The position numbers and the translations under genes are program-made. Under the pieces are notes generated by a model. That model saw only the letters and a program-made list of their open reading frames with translations. It did not search any database and was not told the origin of the DNA. From Amphiscolops sp. MND2022 (taxonomy: Eukaryota), in assembly GCA_964187785.1 (NCBI GenBank), contig OZ076409.1, forward strand, positions 19,656,001-19,720,000: a stretch of DNA of 64,000 nt. The letters are read 5' to 3'. This document shows, one piece after another, positions 1 to 48,225 of this stretch (positions within the stretch are counted from its first letter, which is position 1; each line of letters begins with the position of its first letter).

Positions 1-1190
1 GTCGGCTGGCGATAGAGCGCTATGTTCAGCGGGAACGGCGGTCAAGAATGATTCATTGGAGGGAACCTATTTAGTGAGGTTGAAACCACCTTTTTGTTGC
101 ACACAGCGTTTATTGTCCTTGTGCTGGATGGCTTCTGAGATGGTGTCTGTAGATAGGTAGAAGTCGTCCATATAGAAATTTTCGTAAACGAGGCGCTGAA
201 CGGACGGGTAGTCAGATGCGTGATTCGTGGAGCATGTCTGAAGAGCGTGATTAGCACTTGTAGGCAAACATTTTGCTCCGAAGACATGGCGGACGAACTC
301 GCACATTTCGGGATCATCCTTTCCTCAGAGGAAACGAAGAAATTTTCGATCTTGTGGGCGGACCGAAACTTGCATGTACATTCCTTCGATGTCGGCGGAG
401 ATTGGGAACATCATCTGACGAAAGCGTAAAATGACCCAAACAAGGTTTGCGAGGAGGTCGGGACCTTTGAGGAGCATGTCATTGAGACACGGTCCTTTAT
501 ATTTTGCGGCGGCGTTACATACTCGGCGGAGTTTTGCTTTGGCATGACTATAATCACCATGTCCGGGTATGATCCATCAGTCGGGTAGGAATTTCATGAG
601 ATTCCAGTTTACGAATGTATACTTTTAAATGTCTTTATCAATGGTGTCTTGGTACATGGCGTGTAGGTCGGGTTGTTGCGAGAGGCGATGTTTCATTTTC
701 TTGAACTGTTGGATTGCAGCTGCGAAGTTATTCGGTAGCGAGGCAATGGGGTGCCAGAGAAGATCAACTTCGTGTCGACCATCCTTGAAGGTAGTTGTTT
801 TCTGTAGCGTTGACATAGCGTGTCGTTCTTCTTTAGACATGGTGATTTCAGGCGAAGTGACATAGTTTTCGTTCTTCCAAAAACTTGCGAGGAGATCGCA
901 GAGTTGATCATCGGATGTCGCGGGGGCGTTAATGATTGTGGCACGAAAAGTGAAATGTGATGATGTTTGATTAGGACCGGCGATGGTCCACCCAAGCTTT
1001 GTTTGGATGGCTCGAGGTGAGTTGTTATGTCCTTTGATCACCAGTTCCGGTGTGATGAGGTCGAAGTTGTCTTGACCGAGGATCACTGTATTTGAGTTGT
1101 CGGGTAGAATTGGAAAGCTGACGTCTTCAAGATGTTGATGTTGTTGACAAATTTAGTTTAGTGCTTGTGGTTCAGATGAATTGAGATTAA
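1..1190 (-). mobile_element. BEL/Pao LTR retrotransposon fragment (protease-linker-RT), degenerate, runs off the window edge
   Basis: ORF 625-1086 has the Pao-type motifs ILGQDNFDLI...AIQTKLGWTIAGP and 'DGRHEVDLLW...LPNNFAAA'. ORF 67-306 has the RT motif NFYMDDFYLS followed by GGFNLTK. Frameshifts and deletions separate them. Confidence 0.85.
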
Positions 1191-2727
1191 GGTGATCCAT
1201 AACAAAAATGTTATGGAGGTTGAAATACCCCCCGTAACACCTATGCCCTCCTTGTGTGTTTCGAGAGCTCACCAGTTTCAGAATCGAACGAACTGCCAAA
1301 GAAACAATCATCTGATGCAACCTAACCTTCTGATATTGGCGCCACTTTTCAGAATCAAAACGCGATTAGTCCTTATATTATGTTTAAGAATGGCTACTGA
1401 CAAAGTTTTGAAAAATTCTCGGTTTGGAAAAATCCGAAGAGGTCCTTCAGGTTCTTAAACCTAATTCTCTAATTCAAAACATTATATAACAAAACGTTAA
1501 TGAAGAGTGCTAAACAACCCTAAGATCGACCAATTGCCTTCTTCTACCTTCGCAGGCGTAAAAACTGTCAGCAACTCATGTTACCGGACATCGTGAACAA
1601 AGTCTGTACAAAGTGGACAACTCAGATGCATTCTGTGATCTGGCGAAAAAAAACTGACAAGTCGTTTCCTGCATTAACTGCCAAAGTGTTTGGTGTTCCT
1701 TCAGTATAGAAACGCCGCTTTTTGCAGTGTATACAAAAATTCGTATTTTGGTAATACAAATAGTCACCAAGCCGAGAACGGCCCCAATTGGCACCTCACT
1801 CAAGTGAGGAAAACACAAAGTCCTTCAATTTATTTCAGAATCTTCTTTTGAGAAATGTTTAAACTAATGCACTGTCCCGAAGAAATTGCAAGGGGACCTC
1901 ATAGGGTCATCTTTGCTTCCTCGTGGTTCCTCTGGACCCTTTCTAATTTCGTAAAATAAAAACAGGTTTCGATGGGACCGTTTGAATTTGTTTTCGCTCA
2001 GTGCAAAATATATTGTCTCTTATCTCAGTTTTAAAACTACACAATGTATTGAGATTCAGGATGTGATAGCTTGGTTGATATAATATGCTGTGACATAATA
2101 GGTGCGCTGATTGAGCCGCAGTTGACGACGGTTTTTTTTGTTTTTATCTACATTTCTTCGCTTTTTCCTTGAAATTTTTGGCAAGATCTTGCAAGGCCGT
2201 TCATATTCTTGCCGCTCTCGATAAGAATCTTGCCAAGATTCTTACCAAGGGTTTCATGAAAATGCAAGATTTTTGTCACAAGCTTCAAGAATTTTCACAC
2301 TGGTCGGCTTCTATTTGACAGAACATGACGTACCAAGAAGCTGAACAATTCGAACAAAATATGGATTTTTTGTGAGGCTAAAAAAACAAGCTGGGAGTAG
2401 CGCAAATGGATGGCGCGCTTAAGGTTCAAAAAGGCGCAATACTTTTAAATAAGTACTTAAAAAAACCATCGTACTTTAAAACGAATTTTCAAATCAAAAC
2501 AATGAACTTCAGTGAAATGAAAACTTTTTGAAACAATTCAAAACCACAACGAGAATTATACTCTACTGTCTAGCAAAGTACAATAGTCTGATCTACATTC
2601 AGCTTCACGACGACATGAAACCATTGACGAAGTTGAAGAAATTGAATAAAAAAGCGGACACTTCGATGTGATCCTGAAAAAAATAAGTCAGTGTAATAGT
2701 CTGCTCTTTTTCTTCAAAATGTTGTTT

Positions 2728-3511
2728 TGTAGCGACAAGCTCTCACCATTGTCGCCGTAGCCATAAGAGTAGGAGGAACACATGGCATGGGTATTTGCCC
2801 GGGACAGGCGCCCATGGCCATGAGTCCATTTTGCCTCCTTCGGGTAAAAACTGTCCCGTCAGAGGAGGATTCCGCTTCTTATGAAGTGCTCGCCGGCCTG
2901 TTCCAGTCTGTAATTGCTATCAGTAACGCGAATTACGCTTTTTCTTCGAAACCAACGCTTAGACAGCCTTTAAAAACGTTCCAAAAGGAAATTATGTTAA
3001 ATGTTCGTTTTTCAGGGTGACTTGGGGAATAATATCTAAAATTGCGGAATAAGATCTAAAGTTATCAAAGTAGCCATAAACTTACAACAATGTACAGCAA
3101 TCTACAGCAATCTCGTCCACAACAGCAATTTGGCAACATCCACATCCAGCCCGGAAGCTAGGGCACCACCGGCACAGATTTGTGAATTCGACGGAAAGAC
3201 TCATTTTCACGGTCCTCGCTACTTAAGGTAGCATACTGCTGAAATCAAGGTTAGCACCTTCAAAAGAGTCTCATTTCAGAGGTTTTTGCAGTCTCTGGCG
3301 TCTGTTCGGGCGGCTAGCCTTATGTTTTTTTTCGATCTTCGCTCTTTGTTGTCGAAGTACCTGCCAATTTTGTTGAAACAGCGAAAAGAGCAATCACATG
3401 CTCAGTGCCACGTCAAACATCGAATTAGAATTTTTCAGAAATTTTCTGAACATGTTCAAATCCAAAATTCCAATATCGACTAATTTTGCTGTCTCAGAGG
3501 GTGCCATTACA
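2728..3511 (-). repeat. 3' LTR (~780 bp)
   Basis: Near-identical (roughly 97% by eye, one short indel) to 10501-11278. Starts TGTAGCGACAAG and ends CCATTACA on +. The left boundary may extend to TGTTG at 2720. Confidence 0.85.
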
Positions 3512-3519
3512 TACTCCCC
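3512..3519 (-). promoter_or_regulatory. Polypurine tract
   Basis: The - strand reads GGGGAGTA|TGTAATGG into the LTR (translates 'GEYV'), a junction typical of BEL/Pao-type elements. Confidence 0.65.
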
Positions 3520-4608
3520 GGACTTTATGCATGACGTCCCTGTCATGCGGGGTGGTTGGCATTGAAGACATCTCCACATCAACTTTGCTATCCATTGGGA
3601 GTTAAAACTGGTGATTTTGTATCGGTCTTGTGGCATAATCATCTTTTGCTGTTTGGGCAACATTGAGATTATGTTTCTTGCCATGTATTGAGCCTGCATC
3701 ATCTACTGGTTACTGTTACTGGAGCAAACCCTGGGGCTAGAAAACGAGCACTCAAAAATGCACCTTCAAACAAATCAAAACCAATACTCTATATATCAAT
3801 CTCAGAGCATCATTTGGTTGGCAAACGTTTTCTGCACTAAGTTCAAATAGGATCTTGATAGCACTGATGTTTATGTGGTTTAGGAATTTTTTTGGAGCCC
3901 CGGGGCTCTGTGGCGCGGTTTCTTTCAAAAACTTCTTTTCTACGCCAGTAAAAAATCAGTCTGCAGAACAGTTAAAAATTGTTTTCGGAAAAACTTATTT
4001 CAGCGGAAAGACCACTGTTTAAAAGGAAAACAAGCTGTTTTTTGATACCTTTTTTTACAGTTCGGCTTGGTCTGGGCAACACGCACTGATGTGTAGCTCC
4101 ATCCCTGTATAAAGTTCAGTAGCATCTGTCGAGGAGCGCAACAAAAGCAAACTACGAACTGCTCATAAGCGTAAGCACTGGAGTAAAGTAGGCAAAAATA
4201 GACGGTATCCTGCAATTCAGATATCTGGAGCGCGCGAGCGCTGTATTTTTTGAATATTATATCACACCCTTGATGAAAAACACTGAAAACTTAGAGGAAA
4301 AATACGCGAAAACAAAAAAATATATCACCATTGGGCAAACCAATGCATGTAGAGTTTTTTTACGTATTACATTTTTGTTGAAGTTTTCTGAAAGACAACT
4401 TCTCGAAGAGGCACAAAAACAAAAAAATTGATGACGTTTACATGACAAAAACTAAAAACTTGGCGTCAAGTTTGAGAACTAGCTACTTGAAGAAGAGCAT
4501 CACGCTGTCAAGTATCCATCACCGAAAGTAGTGATGCCCTCAGGGCGTTTTCCGCTTGAATTGAGGTTGAAGGAGGTGTTACTATTCTCCACTGGTGCTC
4601 CCCAGGCC

Positions 4609-5853
4609 TTAGTCAACTCCACGGACCTTAATCATTGAGCATCCTCTTTCACATGAGGATAGATAAGAATGGACGAATTTGAATGCCCAACACAAAATTT
4701 GCAGAATGATAAGTTGATCTTTGACGACACATCCTCCCCCCTTGAAAAGAAAAGAAGTGTAAGTCGGGTTGTGGATAGGCATCTTTTTTTGATAGCAGCA
4801 GGACATGCAAAAGGCATGAGACATCAGGAAATCCAAAAGAGATGAATATGGGTATCTGTCTGTCTCAAAATTGGGATAGATGTTCGGAGGACGGCCACGT
4901 CTACGCCCCTTCGGTCGGTGTGACCATGGTAGTAGAAGGACCAAGCGTGGTGGACGGCCACGGCGGCGTCCGTCATAAAATGAAAGCAGAACTTCTTGCC
5001 ATGAGTGTTCACCAGAAGTTCGCGGTGGTCGACCACGTCTATGTCCAGCTGGCCAAGATTTGGTTGAGCCACTATGCAACTATTTGAGAAAGATTGGCTG
5101 GTCCACCTGAATATAATCCTGTAGACCACGTTTAGCAGAAGGTGGCTCAAAAGAAGATTTTAACAAATTCGGCAGCAACTGCGAAGTTAATAATAGGGAC
5201 TTTGTTCCATGGAAGTGAGAGTTGCTTACAGAATCTGTTGGATCTGTCGATAGTTGGTCTTCAAGGTTTGGTGTTGAGGCTGTTTTAGCTTCCAACACTG
5301 CTTTGGCAGGAAGAATCCTCGTTCCACAATTTGTTTCAGAGCGAGCATTTGGAAATGGGGGCACATCCAAAGATAGTGGGTCTGCCACCATGTCTTTTGC
5401 AGGCGATGTCATTGTTTCTGTTTCTGCGTCGTTCGGAGTATTGATAATGGCAGTTTTGAGGTGAATCGGGCCTTGCAAATCTGCGTTTATCGTCTGCATT
5501 TGTGCTAGCACTCGTGCTAACACTTTTTCCCTACGTATATCACTTTGTGCCAGCCAGACTGATACCTCATTCATTTGCTGTTCTAGGGCCTCCCATTTCA
5601 GGTCCTGTGTCTTTTCGATCAGAATACTGGTTCTATGGAGAAAACATATGTTCGCCGACGATACTGAACTAGGACTGGAAGCCCTTTTGTCATTCTCCTG
5701 CTCGGTACACTGAGAGTTACATGGCATGGTGTTTAAGAAATCGGAGACAAGTTTGAAACTATCCTCCAAAGGCCAGTCTTCCAAGGTCAGATCCTCTAAC
5801 GTCATTGATCGGTCAAGCTCATCTGATATTTGGTTTCCATTCTCCACCTTCAC
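4609..5853 (-). pseudogene. Internal ORF of the LTR element: ~415 codons in one frame, split by one TAG, with three AT-hook-like motifs
   Basis: ORFs 5853-5080 and 5079-4609 abut in the same frame. The C-terminal part has HRRGRPPR, GRRRGRPPR and KGRRRGRPPN. The N-terminal part has a helical/coiled-coil-like stretch (LKWEALEQQMNEV...RREKVLARVLAQMQ). Confidence 0.5.
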
Positions 5854-6799
5854 AACTGGTTTATCATTTGGTTGTGTTGCATTGGCACGGGTCCCCCTTT
5901 AAAAAAGGAACGTAGACGGTGGAAGACCTTCCAACGTTTCATCTCAGCTTTAGAGTCTCCCAACTGCTGTACTAGAACTACCTGTGCTCCCAAGTTCAGT
6001 GTCAGGGTCAAAGTCAAGAAAAGTTCTAGCAATCACAGCGTGCTGAAAACCACGCAACACTTTGCACACTGCTCTATGGGCTGGAAGCTGTTTCTTTTGA
6101 GCAAATTGCTGCAGCAATGTTGGATAGTCTGCACCAAACAAATTGTCGAGCTGTCTGTTCACCTCCCAATCTCAATGAAGTTTTGTAGGTTGCAATTACC
6201 AAAATTTGTTCTCTGCACTACTGACGTGATATTCGGTGTTGATGCTACTTGATACTGCGGAATAACACCAAATCGGGGCAAAAAAGCGATAACCAAGGTT
6301 TTACACTGGAGCAGTCCCGCAAAACTTTCGTCGCGAGGAGGCCATTCTTCTCAAAATCACGTGATTTTGGTTGAGTATGTTCCCCCAGGGTCCTTTTTTG
6401 CCGTTCAAAACCCTGTGCAGTCTTCTAGGGTGACGTATAAAGGGCGTTTATTGGCAAAATGTATCCCAGGGTGCCCTTAGGTTCTTAATGATTTCCGATT
6501 TGAGCTCTGCAAAAATCAAAATTCGATGTTTCAGGGTTGTCGAAAAATTATGACCCCTGCCGGCAATTTTTTTGAACCGTGAAATTCGCCTCGTTTGCTC
6601 ACGGGGAGGCCTACTAGGTCCGTACTGTTGAAAAATGAGCGCTTTTTGTCCCTGCCTTTGGTAGAGCGGGAGAATTACTGGTTTACAATGTCAGTTTTTT
6701 GATGGTTTTTCAGGGGTCCTTACTGAAGGGCGTTTCTGAAAATAGTCAAAAACGGTACCAGCAGTCGTAGCTTGCCAAAAATCACACAACACGTTCTGT

Positions 6800-8900
6800 C
6801 AGACACACAAGATGGAAAATGAACCTCCGGAAGCAAAAATGTACTTCCAGAGTCGCGATAGGGGCTTTTTCAAGGGTTTTTTTGAAATTTCACATTTTTT
6901 TGAAAAACACTCAAGTGGTTCGCAAAAACACTGGAAATGTAGGATCGGGTTCAAAATTGGTCACACAGTCCCACAAACAGCTAGGTACACTGCATCAATC
7001 ACCAATTGGAGCTCGAACTACTAGGTGAGAAATAGATCTGTTCCTGATATTACGTATCACTGTGTCTCAATTGACAAGGTTTTTCAAATACAATCAAAGA
7101 CTCTGAGCTCGCTGCCCCACTTTTTCAGCAACGAGGCACTAGCAGACACTGATACCAATAGTCCCGACTTTCCAATAGGGGGCGTCAACAGTTCCAAAAA
7201 TGTTCCAACTCGTCACAATACCCAGGATGTCTCAACAAAGAGTAGCAAAAAATATGATTCAACGTAGCAACACACTCAATATTGACCAAAATACACACAA
7301 AGAGCAACAGGTTCACGACAAGCAGTTCACAGTAGGGGTATCCAATAGGTTTCCAACACGTATCCCAGGCTTTTAACCCACTTTCCCAATTTTCGTCTCG
7401 GTGAAACTTTAAACTGAAGCAATGAATATGCACGTCCGAGAAGTGTCGAAATTGCTTCCAAGAGTCGTATGATGTTGAAAAGTATACAGCAGTTCAGGTT
7501 TGATGCACCGTTCTAAAAAGAGTGTCCAGAATTGGGATATTAGGCTCCAGTGATAGGTCAGAGAGATTTTTCTTAATTTTTTGATTTTTCAAATTCTCTT
7601 GAAACGAACGTAAGTGACTAGCGCTCGCGCTAGAAACGTACGATCAACTTTAAAATCTGTCACACAATCCCACGTATAATGAGGTACACCGGAATAATCG
7701 TCGATTTGAGCTAGGGTGACTAGGTGAGATTTCAACACAGTACAGACGTTCGGTTTCATTGTGTTCCAAGATACACTGTTTTTCACGTGTCAACCAAGAT
7801 CCCGGTCCACTGCGAAGAGTTCTCAAGCTTGTTCTTTCGGCACGGATACAACAATTTGCACTGATTGTGATAGAGAGCAGCGATTTGGCCCCACTTTTTG
7901 ACTAGGGTGTCCAGACAATCCCACAAAACTTCAAAACAATTGCCTTCTTGCGCCTTTTTGAACAGTTTGTTTTCGTCAACTTCTCAACGAATACTGTATC
8001 AACCGACATCAACCTTAGCAGGCGCTGCCAAAAGGCACCCACAAGGGTGTTCCAGGAGTCAGATAAAAGTTGGTTGACTCACGGGGGTCTCCTCGAAAAT
8101 TTAGTCCTCTGCTCATCTCGGTGAGGACTTAAGCAAAATGACACCTTTTAGTGTCCCAGATTTTCAGAAACACGTTTTAAGGCTCGTAGGCCGTTCGTAC
8201 TTGCACAGCGCCTTCTCACGAGTACACTGGGCCAGAAAATCAACCTGGTTTGAGATGTTTTATCTCCAGGCACTAACAGGACACTTTTACAAGAATTTTG
8301 AATTTTTTCTGAAATTCCGTGAAAACACTCAAGTGGCTCGTGTATGCACCAGATGCGTCGGATCGAGCCCAAAATAGACCAGTAGATCTAAGATACACGT
8401 AGGTTTACGGCAATGAACACAGTTTTGAGCTGCGCTTCCTCTACACAACTTCACTTAGGTACGGACGTGCGGTATCACTATGTGCCAAATTACACTGTTT
8501 TTCACGCCTATTTCAAGATTGCGATCCACTGGAGAAAGCTAGCGAGCCTAAGACTTCTGCGACAAGGTGAAAACTAGCACACGTTACGATGGTGGGTAGC
8601 AATTTGACCCCACCCTTCGGCTAAGGTGCCTGGGTTACTCGGAAAAAATTCGAAAAAACAGGCTTTTTGCACTCCTTTTTGTTTGCAACGTTTTTGCTAT
8701 TTTCTCCACAAGTACCGCACAGATTGACACAAAACTTGGTAGTCTATGCCAGTGAGCGTCCACAATGCCAATGAAGTGCTCAAATTGAAGCGCGGACGCT
8801 TATTTGAGGTTTCGACTTTGTTTGGACACTGCTCACGAAAAAACACTGTTTTTGACTACTTTTTTCACAAATTGACTAAGAGGATCATCTCAGAAAGCAA
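6800..8900. repeat. Three highly diverged ~720-bp tandem units inside the LTR element
   Basis: Anchors recur at ~720-bp spacing: aaaacactcaagtgg (~6904, ~8322; variant ~7605), ctaggtgaga (~7021, ~7720), tacactgtttttcacg (~7772, ~8491), tctcggtga (~7396, ~8116), cccc(a/g)acttt/ccccaccctt (~7163, ~7889, ~8608). Confidence 0.7.
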
Positions 8901-10466
8901 TACGGCAGGCAGAACGGGACCAAAGTGTTGCCTAACTATCCGTAGCACTGGGATAAACCTTCAATTAGCTGTGCCCGTTAGGTATAAGGCAGCGACAGTT
9001 CTGCAGTTTTGGATGTTTTTTGCCTTTTTTTGCTTTCTGAGGTCGAGACGTCAGAGAGCTTTTCTCAACCTTGGTGAACGTTACGCTCACCAAATTTTCG
9101 GCACTAGCGTTTATTTTAGTGGTGATTACGGAAATGTAACCAATTTTTGGCTAGGGTTCAGGATTCAATGGCCCGACCCTCAGAGGCAGTCCGGATTAAC
9201 AAAAAATTAGGGGTTTTCAGTGCGTTTTTCAGCTAGTTTTTTGACGCGGTTTTCGCTCTCACACGTTATTTTTACTATAAAAACAGGAAATGAGAGTTCG
9301 GAAGCTCCTAGCTAACAAAAAGACAGAGTGCCCAGGGGGTTTTGATTGTGTACCCAGACACTCCTGAAACTGACCAAAAATCAAGGTTTTTCAAATTTTG
9401 TCTTTTACGAAGACGAAAAAATCCTGTTCAAACGTTATTTTCTGTGCCGTGGAAGGTGCCCCAAGTTTTTAGCAGCACGGGGGAGGCAAATACAATGCTA
9501 GACGGTACTCCCCCAGTGACATTTCTAAGTGGTTTTTTGCCAAAATCACAAACAAACGGGTTTTTCCATACAAAATGCGTCTGAAAAAGTGCTCCAACGG
9601 CTATTTTGGTTATCACAGCACTATGTATGAAACGTCTCAAGGTCTTGAGCTACTTTTCATTCATTTTTGCAACTGCTGTGGTTGATACCCAGAGCGCTCG
9701 CGCTCGTACCAAGAAAAGTGTCAAAAAAGCCTAAATTGACGTTTTTTTTGCTACTTTTGCTCGAAAAATCGCTCTTTTTCCATGAAAACAGGCTCAAAAA
9801 CACACCCTGAGTTGCAATAGGGGACAACTTACATGGCCAAACGATTCCCCACGAAAAAATAAGCAATCAAAAAAAAATTATACCATACTCCAAAAAACCG
9901 AGTCTTCGGGCATCAGGAGTGGTACCTTCGCCGTCTTTTTTCTCTACACCCAGACCAGCCAGAGACAAACAGTTTGGACCCTCGAAAACGTCAACACTTG
10001 CTCTACGTTTCCACCAAAAACCATCCCTCTAGGACGTCTCGAGGAGAAATGGGAAGGGAGAGTCGGGAACACTCGTTTCGCCTCTTCTATCGGGCGGGTG
10101 GAGTATGGCGCATTCTCTCGTACATAAGCGCAAATCACTGAAAACAGCTAGAAAAACCGGTTAAACACCAGTAGCGACGTGCTACTGTCTTCTGCGTTTT
10201 GTCAGAGGACCCGTTGATGGGAACCGTGCTATTTTAGACAGTGCCTGTCAACAAATACCTGTTACAATAACTATCACCATCGTATTTGGAAAAGTCACCT
10301 GAAAAACGGACAAAAAACCTGTCACAGAAAACCTGTCAGTACATCAAACTCTAAAAATGAAAGAAAAACTCTGCGTAAACATCTCCAACCAGAGCCAGGT
10401 CGTACTTGGCATCAATCACCAGAGGGTCGGCTGTTTTAAAACCAATAAAGGAAGCACTTCGAAGCG

Positions 10467-10484
10467 ATCCCTCTGTGATCGCCA
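10467..10484 (-). promoter_or_regulatory. Primer binding site (tRNA 3' end complement, probably tRNA-Arg-like)
   Basis: The + strand reads atccctctgtgatcgCCA, resembling a tRNA T-arm/acceptor 3' end. The - strand reads TGGCGATCACAGAGGGAT, 5-16 nt past the 5' LTR depending on the boundary chosen. Confidence 0.6.
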
Positions 10485-10500
10485 AAAAATGATGTCTCTA

Positions 10501-11278
10501 TGTAGCGACAAGCTCTCACCATTGTCGCCGTAGCCATAAGAGTAGGAGGAACACATGGCATGGGTATTTGCCCGGGACAGGCGCCCATGGCCATGAGTCC
10601 ATTTTGCCTCCTCCGGGTAAAAACTGTCCCGTCAGAGGAGGATTCCGCTTCTTATGAATTGCTCGCCGGCCTGTTCCAGTCTGTAATTGCTATCAGTAAC
10701 GCGAATTACGCTTTTTCTTCGAAACCAACGCTTAGACAGCCTTTGAAAACGTTAGGAAATTATGGTAAATTTTCGTTATTCAGGGTGACTTGGGGAATAA
10801 TATCTAAAATTGCGGAATAAGATCTAAAGTTATCAAAGTAGCCATAAACTTACAACAATGTACAGCAATCTACAGCAATCTCATCCACAACAGCGATTTG
10901 GCAACATCCACATCCAGCTCGGAAGCTGGGGCACCACCGGCACAGATTTGTGAATTAGACGAAAAGACTCATTTTTACGGTCTTCGCTACTTAAGGTAGC
11001 ATACTGCTGAAATCAAGGTTAGCACCTTCAAAAGAGTCTAAATTCAGAGGTTTTTGCAGTCTCTGGCGTCTGTTCGGGCGGCTGGCCTTATGTTTTTTTC
11101 AATCTTCGCTCTTTGTTGTCGCAGTACCTGCCAATTTCGTTGAAACAGCGAAAAAAGCAATCACATGCTCAGTGCCACGTCAAACATCGAATTAGAATTT
11201 TTCAGAAATTTTCTGAACATGTTCAAATCCAAAATTCCAATATCGACTAATTTTGCTGTCTCAGAGGGTGCCATTACA
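10501..11278 (-). repeat. 5' LTR (~780 bp)
   Basis: Partner of 2728-3511 with the same termini. The boundary may extend to TGATG at 10490. Confidence 0.85.
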
Positions 11279-12341
11279 TATCCTTTTATTTTTCTCGTCG
11301 TATAAACTGTTTGTTGTCCCTGTAAATAGCTCAGAACAACTGTCAAAGTACTTTCGTGCATTTGTTGATCTTTTCTGCCAATATAGACTTTGTCGATTTA
11401 CCTGCAAAAAAGGGATTTCTTTCTCCTTCATTCGGTTCAAATGGATGCTAAATGATAGAAATCAATAGTTCACTCTTTCCTGAATCTTATAGTTTATCCT
11501 GTGTTTAGCGATAAATTGATCATATTTTCCTAATTTCCTGAAATGTTAGATAATGTCAATTGGAAACGGAACAACTATTTCCGGCTTGAAGAATCTTGAA
11601 AAAAACGAGCTTTTGTAATTTCCTTTCGAAAATGCAATTATTTTAACATAAATAGCCATGTTTCTTTTCCCTAAAAGGTAATACAAGTTTGGAAGAAATT
11701 AATTTCATGTGGCAATTAAAAACAGCAGCATTCAGAAGGTTAGTCTCATCAGATATTAAAAAAAGCATACATTCTTACTGGTAGTATTTTTAATAGCGAG
11801 TAATTTTTAGTACAGTAACTTAGCTTGATATTCATCTACACATGCAGGAAAAAACAACAGAATGTACGGGAATTTTGAAAGGATACCAGCGGGGAATAGA
11901 CAATGGGAAAAAGGGGGAAAGATGAGAGGGAAAACCAGAGTCTGTATCTTGTACTTATTCAGTTGTGAACCAATTGTTCTTTGTTTTTTTTGCAGCCACC
12001 GCTGCTTCAGCCAGTCATTGTGCCAGTTTCCTTGCCCTTTGCGGTGTTCGTTCGTTTGTTCTACATTACCTCCGCATCTAACTTGTTTTATATCCCTCTG
12101 TAACCCCCATATCCCCTTATATCCCCCTACCAGACAGCGGCAGACAGGCGCTGATTGGTACGAATTTCACATCAGGTGTGCGTCGGAGAGCTTCGTCACA
12201 ATTTTCATTCCAATTCTCTGCTTCCTTGCTCAATTCAGTTGCATTAACGCACATCTTGCACGAATGTATACGGCACAGTAGTCATTAAAAGCATTTCAAG
12301 AATGTATCAAAAGGCGTGAAGACATTTCGTTACAGGTAGAT

Positions 12342-37176: not shown

Positions 37177-40100
37177 CCCGGAATAGCATAGCGGTATGTA
37201 TTCGTACCACTGCAAGCAACGTGCCCGACAGAATAAGGCCCTCATGAAATCTCCATTTCTATTGGCTTAGGCGAGAGCCGAGCACATGAGTCGAATAATC
37301 CGTCAAATAAAATGGCTCAACTGCCAAATGCTTCGCAGCAAACCTGACATGAAATACGCAACGAAGAAATACGAAACTGCAAAAAACAATACTATTGAAC
37401 ACTCTAGAAATGGAACTGCCGAGTTGAATAGAAAATCAGAAAAATTATGTAAGTATAATTCGTTAATTGCCGAGCAAACAGCCGAGTAACCAAAGAGGTT
37501 GTAAAATGCGCTCGCTCGGAAAATGATTGTTATAAAGCGGTGCATAACTGCACCATTATGCATACAAATACTTTTTCTTTTAATGTTCTTTCAAATTAAT
37601 GATCACTTGTTACAACTAAAAAAGCTGCTTTCTTCAGATAAAAATGAGCTGTATTGCGTTGTGCAATGGGGTTATATTGCACGTGATACTGTGGCTATCA
37701 CGGATCTTATTATGGACCAGAACTTAGCTGTATCCTGAAAATACGACGACAAAGGATCGGAAGAGTACAAAATATTGAAGATACAATCATTGTGGAAATT
37801 TTATGGAAAAAAGACAAAAGTATTAACAGTGTGCACGTTCGCCATTTCAAGCTAAAATCCCCTGAGTCTTACCTGGGCAAGAGAGTATCGTGGAAAGGCT
37901 CGAGTGGTCCAGCTGAAGGAGAAATAGTTCGCAAGATCGCAATGCAAAAGGAAAAAAGGAACTCAGATTGCTTGCAAAAGGAAACTCTAGATGTTCATTT
38001 ACTGACACCAATTCGAACGTCGCAATTACCTCAATTGAGTGAATCATTCGTTACAGAAATGATAAGTCAAACAAATGATATGGAGTTCCCAGAATTTGAA
38101 GATCCATCTGGTAGTAGTTTTTCGCCCGTTCGTTTGGAAACGGAAGCTGTCGCAGAAAATGCAGACGCAGCAGACAATGAAACGAACAATAGGTATCAAA
38201 CTACCTGTCATGTATGTCGCAAAACTTTCAGAGGAAAGAATATATGCATCAATAGCAAGAAACTTTGCCATAAATATTGTTGTGCCTATGATACACAATG
38301 CAGTTTTCAGACCGTCATATGCAAAGATTGCTCTGGCAAAATGTATTCACGTAATTGCTTTGTTGAAAACTGTTTCAATAGCTGCGCTTTCTTTCGCGAT
38401 GGTTGCTGGCAGTTTTTGTGTGATCATCCTTTTGCTGAAGATCGCCAGGAGTGCCGAAAATTGACTAAAAAGTTCCGCAGTCACATCGTTCCGCGAGATA
38501 AAGTGACAACGGAAAACTCTCCAGTATGTACCTGAGACAGCGAGTGCAACGCATCCGGCAACGAGCAGGAGACACTTTCGGATAGCACCAGCGGAATTGA
38601 CCTTGATGATCCTTTGGCTGACTTGATGGGCAAGACAGGATGGAAGCGTAATTTGTACGAGACATCTAAATTCGATTTCGATCAAAACAAACGACAATAC
38701 GAAAAACAACAGAACTACGTACTCCGCTGCAATACTTCCTGGACTATTTCCGAGAACCATTTTTATCAGAGATTGTCGAGTCCAGTATTTTGTATTCGAA
38801 GCAACAAAATCCTGACTCACTGTTCAAGTTATCTACAACAGAGTTGAAACAATTTCTTGGAATAGTAGTCTTTATGACCATTGTGAAATTGGGTGCGAGT
38901 CGACGTTATTGATCAAGACAACTTCATTTGGACTTAGTGGCCGAGACTATGACGTCGGAAAAATTCGAATCCATCATCAGATATTTACACTTCAAAGAAG
39001 GACAAGCAGGTTCAAGAACTCGTAAATTTCAGAGAGTTATAGACCAATTCAACAGCGTGGGTAGTGAATACGAAATGAAAGAACATCTCAACATAGACAA
39101 ACAAATTGTTTCCTACAAAGTCATAAAATCAAGCTTGCGTCAGTACAACCCTAAAAACCCAAACAAATGGGGATATAAAGTAATTTTGCCCTGTGGCGAA
39201 GGTGGAATCATACATCAGTTTGAATTTTATGGACAAGAAGTTACAGTTGACCCTGAGTGGAACATAGTGGGACAGATTGTGCTACGATTGGCCAAGAGTA
39301 TACCTGAGCATAAAAACCATAAATTGTTCTTTGATAATTGGCTCAACTCACCAATGTTGCAAGTCTTGCTGTTTCGTAAAGGAAGTCAGTCAATTGGCAC
39401 CTTACAACTTCCGCGTGCTAAGAATTTGACTTTCCCAGAGCTGACTGAGAAAAAAATTGAAAGAGGAAAATTATTCGTGAAGAGCGCAGTGATCGAAGGT
39501 GTCAGACTATTTGCAACAAAATGGGTTGACAACAGCAGCGTGCACATTCTCAGTACCTTTCCAGCTGGGGATCCTAGTGGAATCATTACCAGATACGATA
39601 TAAAAGTTCAAAAACACGAGACAATTACTGTGCCAAGAGCAATTCTTGATTATAACTCATCTGGGATATGTTGACGAGATCAACTCATACCTCAGTCGCT
39701 TCAGAATGACTACACAAACTCGTAAGACAGCCTATATGAAAATCTTCCTGCATTTCGTGAACATAATGGCAACGAATGCTTGGCTAAAATATCGAGATGA
39801 TGCTCTAGTGCTCAAAGAGCCTAAAAAAGACATTTGGTCACTTTTCGATTTCAAATTTGAAGTCGCGTATGGCCTCAAAAAATGTGGAACAAGTCTGAAA
39901 CAAGGAGGAGGAAGACGTAGTGAGCTTCAAAAAGAATTGGACAGAAGAGCGCAAAAGAAAAGTACTACTCTGCTTCCTACTATGGATATTCGCTTGGACA
40001 ACACTGGGCACTAGCCAGCTGTTGCCACGGAAAGAGGACCCCGTTGCAAGATTCCAGCATATACGTCGCTGCCAAAAACTTACTGCGTGAAGTGTAATAC

Positions 40101-41215: not shown

Positions 41216-42575
41216 GTTGGTAATTGCGCTAACTCTCAGTTAGAACAACTGTTTTTCCTGCAAGGATTTTTTAAAAATATTTCAAATTCTTGCAAAATGA
41301 TGAATTTTCTTGAATTTGAAAGAATGTTGCAAGATCCTTGCAAGCGAAGCTATTCTTTCAAAGATTGCAAAAAAACTTGCAAAAAAGTTTTATTTCTGCA
41401 AAATCTTGGAAAACGTTATTTTTGAAGAGTTTCAAAAGGTTGCATTTCCTTGTGAGGAATTGTATTTTTTGAAACGGGAAAGCTTCAGTAAACAACTCGA
41501 GAACAAAGAAAGTCTCGGTTTTTAAGACTTTTTGAGATTGCCCTCAATTTTGTATCTATGTCTTCATACTTTTTGTCACTGAGTTTTATCATCAAAGTTT
41601 AGCGACAATACCAGCCGGCTTGAAATTGCGAATTAGTGACATGCTTTATGCTCAAAAAATCATCGCCGTATCAACCTTTAAAAAGCTATAGATAGTTGAG
41701 ATTTGCCAAAGGTGATAGTCAATAACCAGAACCTGGGTAAGCTAAATTCCTGCAAAAATGATAAAATCTTCAAAATAGTTGTTTGTTGCAACAATGTCTG
41801 TGTGTATCGTTACAAAGTTTTGAAATGTAGACATTTTGTTTTATAAATGCCGCACAGAAGCGTGATTTTTTTACTACGTTCTGGATAATAATAGTGACTT
41901 TATTCTGAATATTAGAAAATATCTGTTTCATTGACAGTATACGCCATCATACGCGTTTTCCTAATTAAAACTTCAGGAGCTTTTTACATGCTGCAGAAAT
42001 GCAAATCATGCTTCAGGGATGAGAATCATGCAACAAATAGTTGAGTTCTCATCTGCTAGTACTTTTTATGATCATTTCTCATCAGGTAAATTCTGAAGAT
42101 ACTTCATGAACAACCTTAGTTAGTTATTAATTCCAAGGACACTCTTACTGACCCATGTGTTGTGCCGATATCTAGGAAAATTACTCGCCGGAAACAACTG
42201 GTCAAAAATACAAGGCGGAAAGCACCAAGAATCAACAAGGGCCAAATATAAGGCTAATTTTGTCACCTTATTGTATTACGATCAATATTTTTACACTATG
42301 AACTATAAAAGTAAGACATTTCAAGCAATTATATGAGTAAAAAAGCTACATTATGCGTCAAAGTAAAAATTATACGCTTTAATTAAGGAAAATTAATTCA
42401 TAATTGGAACTCTTGTGTTTTTCTGGTGGGACTCATAATTTTTCTTGTGTGTTAATAACAGCCAGTTAGTAATCTGTAATGTTTTCGGCAAGTTTGCACC
42501 TAATTGATAATGGTCGAGTTAATTTTCAACCAGTTTTCCTCCCTTCAATTTCGACTACTGTGCCATCTGCTTCAG

Positions 42576-42933
42576 GTGAAGATCATAGCTCTGGCAGGTC
42601 TGGCGTGGATGGCGGAGAGCATGATGGTGAACGTGCTGGGCGTGTTGGGTCCGGAGATCTACTGTCGCTGGAGACTGTCGGCAGACGCAGAGGCCTCCAT
42701 ATCAATAGCCGGCTTCCTCGGCCTCATGCTGGGCTGTGTAGTGTTCGGATACATCTTCGACAGGTACGGCCGGCGATTCGGCATGCTGTTGTCTGTGGGA
42801 TGGTCCGCCGTCTTCTGTCTCATCACCGCTTTCTCCACCAGATACCTCTTCTTAGTCATTAACGTCTTCTTCATGAGCTTCGGCGCCGGGGCCAGTAGTC
42901 TGGCTGCCGTCTATTCCTGCGAATTCATTCCAG
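42576..42933 (+). CDS. SVOP: SVOP-like exon 3
   Basis: VKIIALAGLAWMAESM...CRWRLS...GYIFDRYGRR (MFS motif A)...YSCEFIP; AG/GT boundaries are phase-consistent. Confidence 0.93.
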
Positions 42934-42971
42934 GTATTTTGCACACACGGATTTGTATTGATAACAATATA

Positions 42972-43374
42972 CGGGGTCTTTCAGAAATTATGTGTCAAAA
43001 CTATCTCCAAATTGTGCGAAATTGGTCAAATTTGACAAGAATGGTATTTTTTTTAGGTTTTTTAGAGAAACATTGGTACTTTTGTATGATGTTTTTTGTT
43101 TCGCTCAATTTTGTTGTTGAGTGGAAATTTCAATTTTTCACATTTCCTCTTTCCGGCCATGAACCAACTTACTCAATATTCGGAAGCAATTACAGTTGTG
43201 CAAAGATGAGAATGGAGGTCATTTCCAGCACCTAATGTTGTGAATAAACTTTTAATGTACCAAAAACAAAAGTTACATATATTGTTGAAAATCTGTTAAA
43301 AATCGTTACATTGTGAATAGTAGTTTTTGAGATATTTGAAATTAAAGTTGACACATAATTTCTGAAAGACCCTG
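42972..43374. mobile_element. Tc1/mariner-type MITE (403 bp)
   Basis: TA TSD; ~27-bp TIR CGGGGTCTTTCAGAAATTATGTGTCAA / TTGACACATAATTTCTGAAAGACCCTG with 1 mismatch. Confidence 0.9.
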
Positions 43375-44762: not shown

Positions 44763-45452
44763 CTAGTTTTTAGCCACTTTTGATAGGTTTTGGCTTCTAT
44801 AGGTGTCGTAACCATTTTCGACATCACTGTGGTGAGAATCTACTGAATTCTCTCTACAGTGATTTATTCGGTCACTTCTCATCGTTACTAACCTGGGAAA
44901 ATCATTTTGAACATCCTCAGCCATGTGGCTGACATTTTCAGGATGCAGTCTATTTGACTGAAGATTTTTCTGAGGACGTACTTGACTGAAATTACCCGGA
45001 TACAGTCCGTCTGACCGAAGGTCCAAATTTGTATTTTTAGCTAAATTTCGGTTTTTGACAGCATTTTTGATGCTTGGTAACACCTTTCTCTCTATTACAG
45101 CATTGATAGCGTCCAATATTTGAGAATTTAGGTTTGTTTGCATTTCCTCAAGTTTTCTAGACATTTGCGAAGAAATCTCAGAACTAACGGCTCTGCTTGT
45201 TTCCACAGTTATTCCACTATTTTCTTTAATGTTAGAGTTCAAATAAGACCTGTAGTCATTTTCGTTATGATTCGAACTTTCTTCTCGTCTATTTGACTCT
45301 AAGTCCATCTCGTTCTCACTTGCTCTATCTTGTACATCACTATCATCTCTTTGATAACTTCCTAACATTACATCAAGGTTTTCGATATCTGACATGGCGT
45401 CAGACTGACGGGAACGTTTCTCTTTAGCTTTCTGCTTTATAGTTGAAAGCAT
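44763..45452 (-). CDS. Uninterrupted ORF starting inside the solo LTR (probable N-terminus of the element's gag-like ORF1)
   Basis: MLSTIKQKAKEKRSRQSDAMSDIENLDVMLGS..., ~216 codons open to the LTR end (…ENGYD), then 13 codons into the flank. Contains a coiled-coil-like ISSQMSRKLEEMQTNLNSQILDAI. Confidence 0.6.
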   Translation of the reverse strand: MLSTIKQKAKEKRSRQSDAMSDIENLDVMLGSYQRDDSDVQDRASENEMDLESNRREESSNHNENDYRSYLNSNIKENSGITVETSRAVSSEISSQMSRKLEEMQTNLNSQILDAINAVIERKVLPSIKNAVKNRNLAKNTNLDLRSDGLYPGNFSQVRPQKNLQSNRLHPENVSHMAEDVQNDFPRLVTMRSDRINHCRENSVDSHHSDVENGYDTYRSQNLSKVAKN

Positions 45453-46350
45453 ATTCAAAAGAGGACTTTGAGTTCAACAATGAATTGTAAGAAGAAACAA
45501 ATTGAACAAATTCGTGTATTGAGTGTATTTCGTTTCATCAATGAATGATTCCCTTTTCAACAAGTTCCGCGTATTTATAGTTATAACTGCATGACATGCA
45601 TAAATTTGTGCGTCAGGTAGCTAAATTTGGGTTGATGTCAGGATAGATTTAGCTTAAGCCCAAATATTACGTTACCAGATTCTAAAAATAGATTTCGAGT
45701 GTTGACATTACGTCACTTTAGGAGGGGAGATATAAATAGTATCAAACTAACAATATATCAGTTTCCATGTAACTAATTCTACTTCGAAAGCAACAATTCA
45801 TGAGGCGGCAACATCAATATCTAACTAAACAATAAATATGACCAAACGTCAGCATGACTGCAGTGAGTAGCTCACACTGCGTTCTGATTGGCTGAAGTAA
45901 TGTTTTGACTACACGTCAGTTTGACTGCAGTAGTTGGTCGGTCAAATACGTTTTCACACTTTCATGCCTGAATTACTGCATATTAAAACACTTTCCAATT
46001 TGTTCTATAACATAACGTTGAAATAACTGCACTAAATACATTTGATGCATCGTATGAATAACAAAAAGATTGCGGCATATTGTATAAAATGATATTAAAA
46101 TCAGCACTTGGAACAGTTAGAGTATAGAGTTGCTGTCCAGTTGACCTGTGGTCAACTTGTAAAAAATACATGTTGTATAAAATAGAGACTGCACTGGTTT
46201 TAAAGTTATAAACTTGTATTAGTTTATCATTGTAAACCTTTTAGGTAGACTAAAGGCTTTATATGGGCAAGACCCCCGGTCCTGGGTGAGTTTGTTCGGT
46301 ATCAGGCACTATCTGATAAGAAGTGCCGTCACAGGCGGCAGCCTGCGACA
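44804..46350 (-). mobile_element. Solo LTR, 1547 bp, 5-bp TSD ATAGG
   Basis: Termini TGTCGTA...TGCGACA; ATAGG at 44799-44803 and 46351-46355; TATA-like ctataaata on the - strand at ~45580. Confidence 0.85.
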
Positions 46351-46832: not shown

Positions 46833-47504
46833 GTACATTTTTATTCATTTCATCTCTAAATTATCTCCCATCAATTCGGCTCTTCCAGCTGTGTTTCAGG
46901 AAAGTTACTGACAGATTCCCGCCCCCAAAGGAATTTCAAGAAAAAATTTCCTAAACAGCCTACGCTGGGCCTCAGCCAATTCATGCATATCCAATTTTGA
47001 ACGGATGCTTTTGACATTTGGTGCAGAAGATTTATATTGTATTTTTTGCCAAGAAAAAATTCCTTTTTCAAAAAAGATGCCAACTTTCAAGAAAAACGTG
47101 TTTCATAATTTCGCTTTTTTTTCTACCGTTTTTCATTCATTATTCATTCCACTTTTCTGTTGAAAGGAGCCTTTTTTCATATAAAGAACTCCAAACTCAG
47201 AAAATATTTAGTTGCTCTTTAACGCATTAATGAAAAAGCTCGGTTTACAGACGAAAGCCAAAATTCGCAAGTGTATTCAGCAACGTATTGTTCCATGACA
47301 TTAACATTAATGCTACTGTAACGTGACTTTCATTTTAGCTCTTTTCAGACTTTAGCAGCTAACATTTGTGTGGGGAATTTAGAGAACTTTTTCTTGGAAC
47401 AGATTTGTTTAGGAGAATGGTCAATCATGAATAATTAGGCAGACATCCTTATGATGAAATTTTTCAAGAACAATGCTGGGATGCTTATTAGTATATAATG
47501 CTAC

Positions 47505-48225
47505 TGTAACGGCAAGCAGTAGTCGCGACCGCTTAACACATTACTAGAGATGGAGGAGCCTGTAGAATGGGACTAGCTCCCATCGCCACAAGTCCATTTT
47601 GCCTCCAGAGTGAAATAAGTCCCGCGGGGCCGTGGGGATGTCCCGCTTCGGCTGAATACTTACCGACCGGCCCTAGGCTTTGACTCCTATAAGCAAAGGT
47701 CACCTTTCTGCCATTCTGAGAACCACCACTCGAATAACTTAAAAACTTCACCTAGAATGGGGTAAGTTTCCAATTACAGGCTGACAGGGGATTGTGATCT
47801 AAAATCGCCAAAAGTAGCTCTCATGCTCAAAAATAAGCATGTAAACAGTGATAATCTATACAACCATACATCGAAAGGTAGAGCTCCTAGTACCAAACGA
47901 AGATATTCAAGCTGAGGACTCATTTTTTGGTTTTCGCTACTTTAGGGAGCGTTTTGCGAAAAAAAATCATCAAAACCGTGGAGTTAGCACCTGTAAATTC
48001 ATTCCTTAAAGAGACATTTTTGTCCTCAGTCTCTGTCGGCCTTCGGGCTCTATCAGACTTCTCTCGTTTTCGTTTTTTTTAAAGAAAAATTGCGGAAACA
48101 GCGAAATGAACAATCACATGCCCAATTCCACGTCAAATTTCGGCTTATAAGTTCAAAGCAACTTCTGCAACATCATCTCAGTTATCTCCAAACGGTCGTA
48201 AACTTGCCTCACCAAAACTGTGGCT
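47505..48225 (-). repeat. Diverged relative of the 2728/10501 LTR family (probable solo LTR)
   Basis: Starts TGTAACGGCAAGC (vs TGTAGCGACAAGC) and shares agtccattttgcctcc, gactcatttt, gttagcacct and aatcacatgc...ccacgtcaaa in colinear order. Right end uncertain. Confidence 0.6.

Follow-up and report, generated by a model that had tools for sequence, protein, structure and literature searches.

A young pol-less LTR retrotransposon family in Amphiscolops sp., probably mobilised by giant Ty3/Gypsy elements with 3-bp target duplications

Introduction

Large retrotransposon derivatives (LARDs), rice Dasheng with RIRE2 and soybean SNRE are described as combining a long pol-less interior with intact long terminal repeats (LTRs), primer-binding site (PBS) and polypurine tract (PPT), and as exchanging an LTR segment with a helper, a process called 'LTR swapping' in SNRE (Du et al. 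2010, cited in PMC3701649). A literature search on SNRE/SARE returned nothing. Here we describe an element of this general kind at positions 2728-11278 of a 64,000-nt stretch of Amphiscolops sp. MND2022 DNA (contig OZ076409.1; hereafter the window, to which coordinates refer), together with its family and presumed helpers. It differs from the plant systems, as so described, in residing in an animal genome, in leaving target-site duplications (TSDs) of 3 bp, in exchanging the 3' end of the LTR together with the PBS, and in keeping an open 430-codon frame and an AUG-poor leader.

Among described LTR retrotransposons, 3-bp duplications are associated with Troyka (Kuafuorterviruses), which a 2025 paper proposes as a new superfamily. 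This paper gives Troyka CG...CG ends, LTRs of 100-400 bp, a CX2CX8-10HX4C knuckle, no GPF/Y motif and an interior of up to 7.7 kb, and gives other LTR retrotransposons duplications of 4-6 bp (PMC12440569); the Troyka reverse transcriptase (RT) motif reads I/V/LADD in PMC11673190. Set against these descriptions, the lineage found here resembles Troyka in its 3-bp TSD, its single gag-pol with the order protease, RT, RNase H, integrase, and the existence of non-autonomous members, whereas it has TG...CA ends, LTRs of 713-784 bp, a CX2CX4HX4C knuckle, the motifs GPH and YIDD, and helpers of 14.5-19.3 kb. Yeast Ty3 reportedly makes a 5-bp TSD (bioRxiv 10.1101/2021.07.27.453949). Our helpers resemble Ty3/Gypsy elements (Metaviridae) in domain order, motifs and best solved-structure match, but differ in their 3-bp TSD, in a PBS set 11-19 nt from the LTR, in a leader of 2.4-5 kb, in a pol tail with AT-hooks and a predicted TARG1-like macrodomain fold, and, in most, in a second open reading frame (ORF) of about 1400-1550 codons.

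Within its family the copy in the window is unremarkable and slightly decayed, and the interest sits in the lineage. We find it very probable that the pol-less element is copied and inserted by the enzymes of a giant Ty3/Gypsy element of the same genome that has TG...CA ends and makes 3-bp duplications.

Results

A multi-copy family with 3-bp target duplications

The positions of its PBS and PPT place the window element on the minus strand (Table 1). An initial annotation, made from the sequence without database searches, had described two LTRs of about 780 bp, roughly 97% alike and ending TGTA...TACA, a tRNA-like PBS, a PPT, and an interior without RT, RNase H or integrase, and all of these held up. 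The LTRs are identical at 757 of 784 columns (Kimura two-parameter distance, K2P, 0.028). The PBS pairs with the 3' end of the genome's own tRNA-Arg(TCG) plus CCA, at all 18 positions in 21 of the 23 complete family copies defined below. When we searched with the capsid-to-integrase ORF of the autonomous partner by tblastn, the window element gave no match at E<=1 and neither did any of the 23 complete copies; Pfam found nothing above cut-off in six interior ORFs of the window element. Decayed pol in the interior was rejected on the tblastn result. The complementary tRNA end has 254 pattern matches genome-wide, and ARAGORN called tRNA-Arg(TCG) for most of those inspected; some of the 254 read as having a TCA anticodon. 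Genes for tRNA-Arg(TCG), the presumed primer of the lineage, form a large cluster in tandem at G000:C9:57537788-57576392 and beyond (L103-L107).

First-look searches of the genome yielded 4046 LTR and 1079 interior candidates, figures that are lower bounds and not copy numbers. We examined 45 loci and counted as complete copies the 23 that satisfied rules for four clean LTR ends. These are 7.2-9.4 kb long, with LTR divergences of 0.000-0.086 (K2P 0.000 in four). An exact 3-bp TSD flanks 22 of the 23, and duplications of 4 or 5 bp flank none (one copy also matches at 6 bp), while mismatched flank pairs, used as a control, agree at 3 bp in 21 of 506 cases. The middle TSD base is A or T in 22/22, and two additional loci (L036 and L069) show 3-bp matches as well. 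An unrelated Gypsy family whose PBS abuts the LTR gave a 5-bp TSD in six of seven evaluable copies (two of nine pairs were not evaluable), and the 3-bp length is therefore a trait of the lineage and not an assembly artefact. This control Gypsy (L038/L100; G000:C1:25950500-25966499), about 16 kb long with 1740-bp LTRs, sits inside a stretch rich in copies of the window family.

The family is a young, multi-copy, non-autonomous LTR retrotransposon. As in LARDs, two LTRs, a PBS and a PPT accompany an interior without capsid, RT, RNase H or integrase, and many independent insertions share that interior and carry TSDs. LARDs in the strict sense have an interior without coding capacity, and here a 430-codon ORF is open in the young copies. 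That the element belongs to a young non-autonomous family moved in trans had been anticipated, with copies expected to have the same interior and TSDs of 4-6 bp; the copies are there, and their TSDs measure 3 bp. The earlier statement that the window copy has no TSD gives way to a likely 3-bp duplication with one mismatch. Two independent solo LTRs were rejected as an explanation of the window locus, given 23 complete copies with the same interior and TSDs.

Several observations weigh against so uniform a picture. TSDs are missing at L086, at L195 and at two of six solo LTRs (the other four match). The end-finding rules dropped 22 of the 45 loci as incomplete, so that the tally favours clean copies. 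The flanks of the window copy itself read TTT and TAT, and a search for the empty site of this insertion found none, the right flank being single-copy and the left repeat not spanning the site.

Probable autonomous helpers of Ty3/Gypsy type

The pattern of an LTR end followed by up to 25 nt and the PBS occurs at least 2902 times in the genome, with several spacer types, and the exact spacer of the window family 255 times. Examples with this junction include the pol-carrying elements that we call helpers, whose one gag-pol ORF, 3255 codons long in one of the copies, encodes zf-CCHC, then protease, RT, RNase H and, last, integrase. Their motifs include YIDD and WxGPH, the GPY/F-type motif reading GPH; RNase H is a single region directly after RT, of the active type and without a tether; and the CX2CX4HX4C knuckle is present in helper types A, B, C, E and F and was not found in the D type. 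The best PDB match of the helper RT is the Ty3 RT, at 242 bits versus 154 for the next-best chain. Judged by these motifs and by the PDB ranking, the helper is of Ty3/Gypsy type and not BEL/Pao. An autonomous element with the same LTR end and PBS, which the initial annotation had envisaged, thus exists, and the BEL/Pao identity proposed for it did not survive: elements sharing PBS, spacer and LTR 3' end are Ty3/Gypsy. What tells against the assignment is its dependence on motifs and PDB ranking; an RT tree of 18 rows, with no named references and a long outgroup branch, was not used for classification.

An A-like PBS junction served to pick 14 elements on chromosome 1, of which eight carry pol and six are of the same kind as the window element. 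Every pol-carrying copy with both ends readable has a 3-bp TSD (14/14, in two sets of 5 and 9), departing from the 4-6 bp usual in Ty3/Gypsy elements; other pol-carrying copies, which were tandem, truncated or had ends beyond the sequence retrieved, were left out of this tally. The duplications are likely 3 bp long because the integrase of the lineage cuts with a 3-bp stagger. RTs related at 54-59% identity occur in public assemblies and likely come from another host, since one of them has no match above 59% in this genome; a metagenome scan for related RTs gave seven contigs of 1.3-3.1 kb.

Several features of the helpers stand somewhat apart. The predicted TARG1-like macrodomain lies in the C-terminal tail of pol (L177:1650-2729; also L158, L162, L164, L165, L198 and L201); its model has a pLDDT of 68 and a Foldseek E of 1e-10 to TARG1, and a single-sequence fold of the tail has a pLDDT of 39. 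A second macro-like unit possibly lies ahead of it. A literature search combining macrodomain/TARG1 with such elements found nothing. The second helper ORF (L158:2725-7014, L164:4073-8281, L201:3381-7814) has no Pfam match and, by eye, an SGNH-like stretch; another pol-less family with a 3-bp TSD (L147) retains this ORF instead of the Gag leader. In a 16.2-kb D-type copy with a 3-bp TSD (L197:5477-8468), the first ~270 codons of the non-autonomous ORF continue into D-type gag-pol, an arrangement that is probably either ancestral or the product of recombination. At G000:C1:34035025-34113600, some five D-type elements of 14 kb share LTRs in a tandem array (L149, L163, L176, L177).

A mosaic LTR that shares its 3' end with the helpers

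The final 249 nt of the LTR in young non-autonomous copies are 99-100% identical to those of five young helpers. From there the high identity carries on through spacer and PBS into the leader, for about 85 nt; its left edge is sharp. The remainder of the LTR is about 50% identical to the same five helpers, which is alignment noise, and 72% identical to D-type helpers; the latter match most of the leader as well, and most of the 3' untranslated region (UTR), at 62-88%. Certain diagnostic bases are common to older non-autonomous copies and an older helper. In the window copy the corresponding block is 92-95% identical to A/F-type helpers and includes an F-type patch, a string of bases that outside this copy was seen in F-type helpers alone. 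We infer that the R-U5-PBS end has been swapped repeatedly, by template switching in co-packaged RNAs, and, from the shared U5/PBS and TSD, that a helper mobilises the family in trans. The U5 tree lends this reading little, having few supported branches, and the argument rests on the table of shared bases. An RNA fold of U5/PBS gave a z of -1.34, which is not significant. Non-autonomous pararetroviruses are reported to show concerted evolution of non-coding regulatory regions (PMC5491270), and their partners are likewise kept matched by repeated region-specific recombination; they are plant viruses, whereas the partners here are integrating animal LTR elements.

An open frame probably derived in part from Gag

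The AT-hook ORF and the triple repeat of about 720 bp noted at the outset are both confirmed. The window ORF consists of a remnant of the Gag N-terminal leader, three AT-hook (RGRP) cores at about 4885-5045 and a read-through into the former 3' UTR, and is broken by an in-frame stop codon, by single-nucleotide deletions at two sites and by replacement of its middle segment. In young copies the 430-codon sense ORF is intact, and a non-autonomous relative of D type, about 16% diverged, has it open too. Over its first ~230 residues the ORF matches parts of the N-terminal leaders of helper Gag, as far as the point where capsid starts; its last ~40-70 codons match the D-type helper 3' UTR, and the repeats are leader units, of which helpers carry two or more related ones. 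Pfam found nothing above cut-off in the intact 430-aa ORF, and the ESM Atlas gave no usable match; a check for RNA evidence turned up no listing for the interior, which speaks neither way. The supposed cargo thus appears to be mostly helper-derived, from the Gag N-terminal leader, 5' leader and 3' UTR. The original suggestion of captured or novel cargo fails for most of the ORF, the repeats and the 3' region and keeps some room in the AT-hook stretch, which is only weakly matched. Two points qualify this derivation: the similarity between ORF and Gag is patchy (pairwise blastp E between 1e-4 and 1e-2; for four of seven helpers it exceeds every one of 200 shuffles), and the match of the AT-hook stretch to that of the pol tail is weak and composition biased (E 0.002).

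In the ORFs of 46 copies, 21 of 628 private changes create a stop codon, against one of the 277 changes that at least three copies share (P=0.004), and 6 of 8 shared indels (first 380 codons) are in frame versus 18 of 65 private ones (whole ORF; P=0.013). The synonymous:nonsynonymous ratio is alike in the two classes, at 159:448 private versus 78:198 shared (P=0.57). Pairwise dN/dS is 0.6-1.1 for the ORF, 0.11 for the helpers' Gag leader and 0.01-0.04 for the helper capsid. The start codon is kept in 43 of the 46 copies and the RGRP cores in 38-40. No triplet is as strongly depleted on the leader's sense strand as ATG (22 seen versus 62 expected; antisense, 51 versus 49), and the depletion lies nearly all beyond the first kilobase; in 24 copies, 74 distal-leader ATGs are private and 5 widely shared, against 97 and 55 in the antisense control (P=2e-7). 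These stop, indel, ATG and dN/dS patterns indicate that in the lineages that moved the message stayed translatable, with no clear retention of the sequence of the protein.

We lean slightly towards regarding the ORF as a gag-pol remnant whose translation, more than its sequence, would help the RNA in cis. Two observations sit awkwardly with this: the coiled-coil and AT-hook regions give a hint of amino-acid constraint (P 0.07 and 0.09), and the first ~1 kb after the LTR contains 15-20 ATGs, which ribosomes would somehow have to pass to reach the ORF. Translation of Ty1 genomic RNA is reported to bring the RNA to particle assembly sites without cis-preference (PMC3945221). By analogy this may serve as a model for why a pol-less RNA would stay translated, Ty1 being a copia-type yeast element.

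Discussion

A possible mechanism and its alternatives

As we picture it, helper particles would take up the non-autonomous RNA, tRNA-Arg would prime it and reverse transcription would follow. Switches of template between RNAs packaged together would again and again give it the R-U5-PBS end of whichever helper is active at the time, in place of its own. The U3 and interior of D-type origin would be retained, and translation of the ORF would benefit the RNA in cis, through stability against nonsense decay or through delivery to assembly sites. On a broader proposition we are evenly divided: that an undescribed giant animal clade of Ty3/Gypsy evolved the 3-bp stagger independently of Troyka, with a PBS 11-19 nt out that would need unusual end processing, and that its pol-less parasites stay mobile through the active helper's R-U5-PBS and a decoy frame selected for being translated.

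Other origins of the lineage fare poorly. An aberrant Troyka that switched to TG...CA ends would need no second origin of the 3-bp TSD, which is the Troyka hallmark, and Troyka too has a single gag-pol ORF with Gypsy domain order (PMC12440569); we nevertheless think this very improbable, as the ends, LTR length, knuckle, YIDD and GP-H are all unlike published Troyka states. Duplication length is the only feature proper to Troyka that the lineage has. A literature search for Gypsy elements with 3-bp duplications returned, for that trait, only Troyka papers, with Repbase, subscription journals and the Troyka supplements outside its reach. We give almost no credence to a BEL/Pao partner combined with a captured host or novel gene. 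Its attractions are a Pao-like fragment at about 67-1152 with a weak RVT_1 match (E 0.074) and an ORF without a Pfam or Atlas match, but fragment and element have no DNA similarity, every examined pol-carrying element with the same PBS junction is Gypsy-type, and the ends of the ORF match the helper Gag leader and 3' UTR.

The ORF might instead encode a working trans-acting protein (DNA-binding, a coiled-coil accessory or a dominant-negative Gag fragment) whose fast evolution would be due to disorder. Retention of the frame, start codon and RGRP cores fits such a protein, as does a small surplus of synonymous changes in its AT-hook and coiled-coil parts; we still hold it to be rather doubtful, with no overall amino-acid constraint in the ORF and a dN/dS of 0.11 in the equally low-complexity helper Gag leader, and a protein shared in trans would presumably not be selected in each non-autonomous lineage. 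That the window copy is a recombinant of two separate insertions, a suspicion raised by the initial annotation, is improbable. Its flanks do differ, and a small left-hand repeat is not continued on the right, but that repeat already ends 8 bp before the LTR, two of three TSD bases match with a middle A/T as in the family, and the two LTRs have subfamily-specific changes in common, each finding its best match in the other (97%, with no more than 93% elsewhere). A recombinant origin is not needed, because about 8% of copies this old should show a single mismatched base in a TSD of 3 bp (estimated from K2P).

A Gypsy-type lineage with TG...CA ends and 3-bp duplications means that the 3-bp trait is not confined to Troyka, and its apparently active Ty3-like integrase may offer a system for asking what sets the stagger. 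Standard annotation would likely miss or misfile the element and its helpers, for all the LTR-PBS junctions of the lineage in this genome: LTR finders whose defaults demand a TSD of 4 bp or more would miss them. The family also records helper tracking over time, and may provide, at the level of the copy population, a sign that translation is selected for without the sequence of the protein being clearly so.

Layout of the window copy and neighbouring sequences

Table 1. Features of the pol-less element and its flanks in the 64,000-nt window.
Feature	Position	Strand	Remark
Likely 3-bp target duplication, left copy	2725..2727	+	TTT; by the family rule
3' LTR	2728..3511	-	784 bp
PPT	3512..3519	-	GGGGAGTA; directly adjoins the 3' LTR
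3' untranslated region	3520..4648	-	~72% identity to D-type helper 3' UTR over most of its length
Broken copy of the family 430-codon ORF	4649..5942	-	end approximate
Distal 5' leader	5943..9178	-	AUG-poor; homologous to D-type helper leader
Three degenerate ~720-bp leader repeats	6735..8765		57-61% identity; strand not assigned
Block common with autonomous helpers	10390..10749	-	last 249 nt of LTR, spacer, PBS, ~85 nt of leader
PBS for tRNA-Arg(TCG)	10467..10484	-	17/18 match in the window copy
Spacer from LTR end to PBS	10485..10500	-	16 nt; same sequence in A-type helpers
5' LTR	10501..11278	-	778 bp; TG...CA; orientation from PBS and PPT
Likely 3-bp target duplication, right copy	11279..11281	+	TAT, one mismatch; by the family rule

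The window holds several other sequences. At 67-1152 (-) lies a broken pol fragment, its DNA unrelated to the element, which its motifs suggest to be BEL/Pao-like. The short dispersed repeat to the left of the element (2602-2719) has 40 other matches at 73-88%. A diverged LTR-like sequence of the same lineage, starting TGTAAC, occupies 47504-48220 and contains a 59-bp, 81% match to the element's LTR. By eye, three further ORFs resemble a piggyBac-like transposase remnant (37687-39671, +), an exon of a membrane transporter (42504-43232, +) and the start of another Gypsy gag (44766-45473, -).

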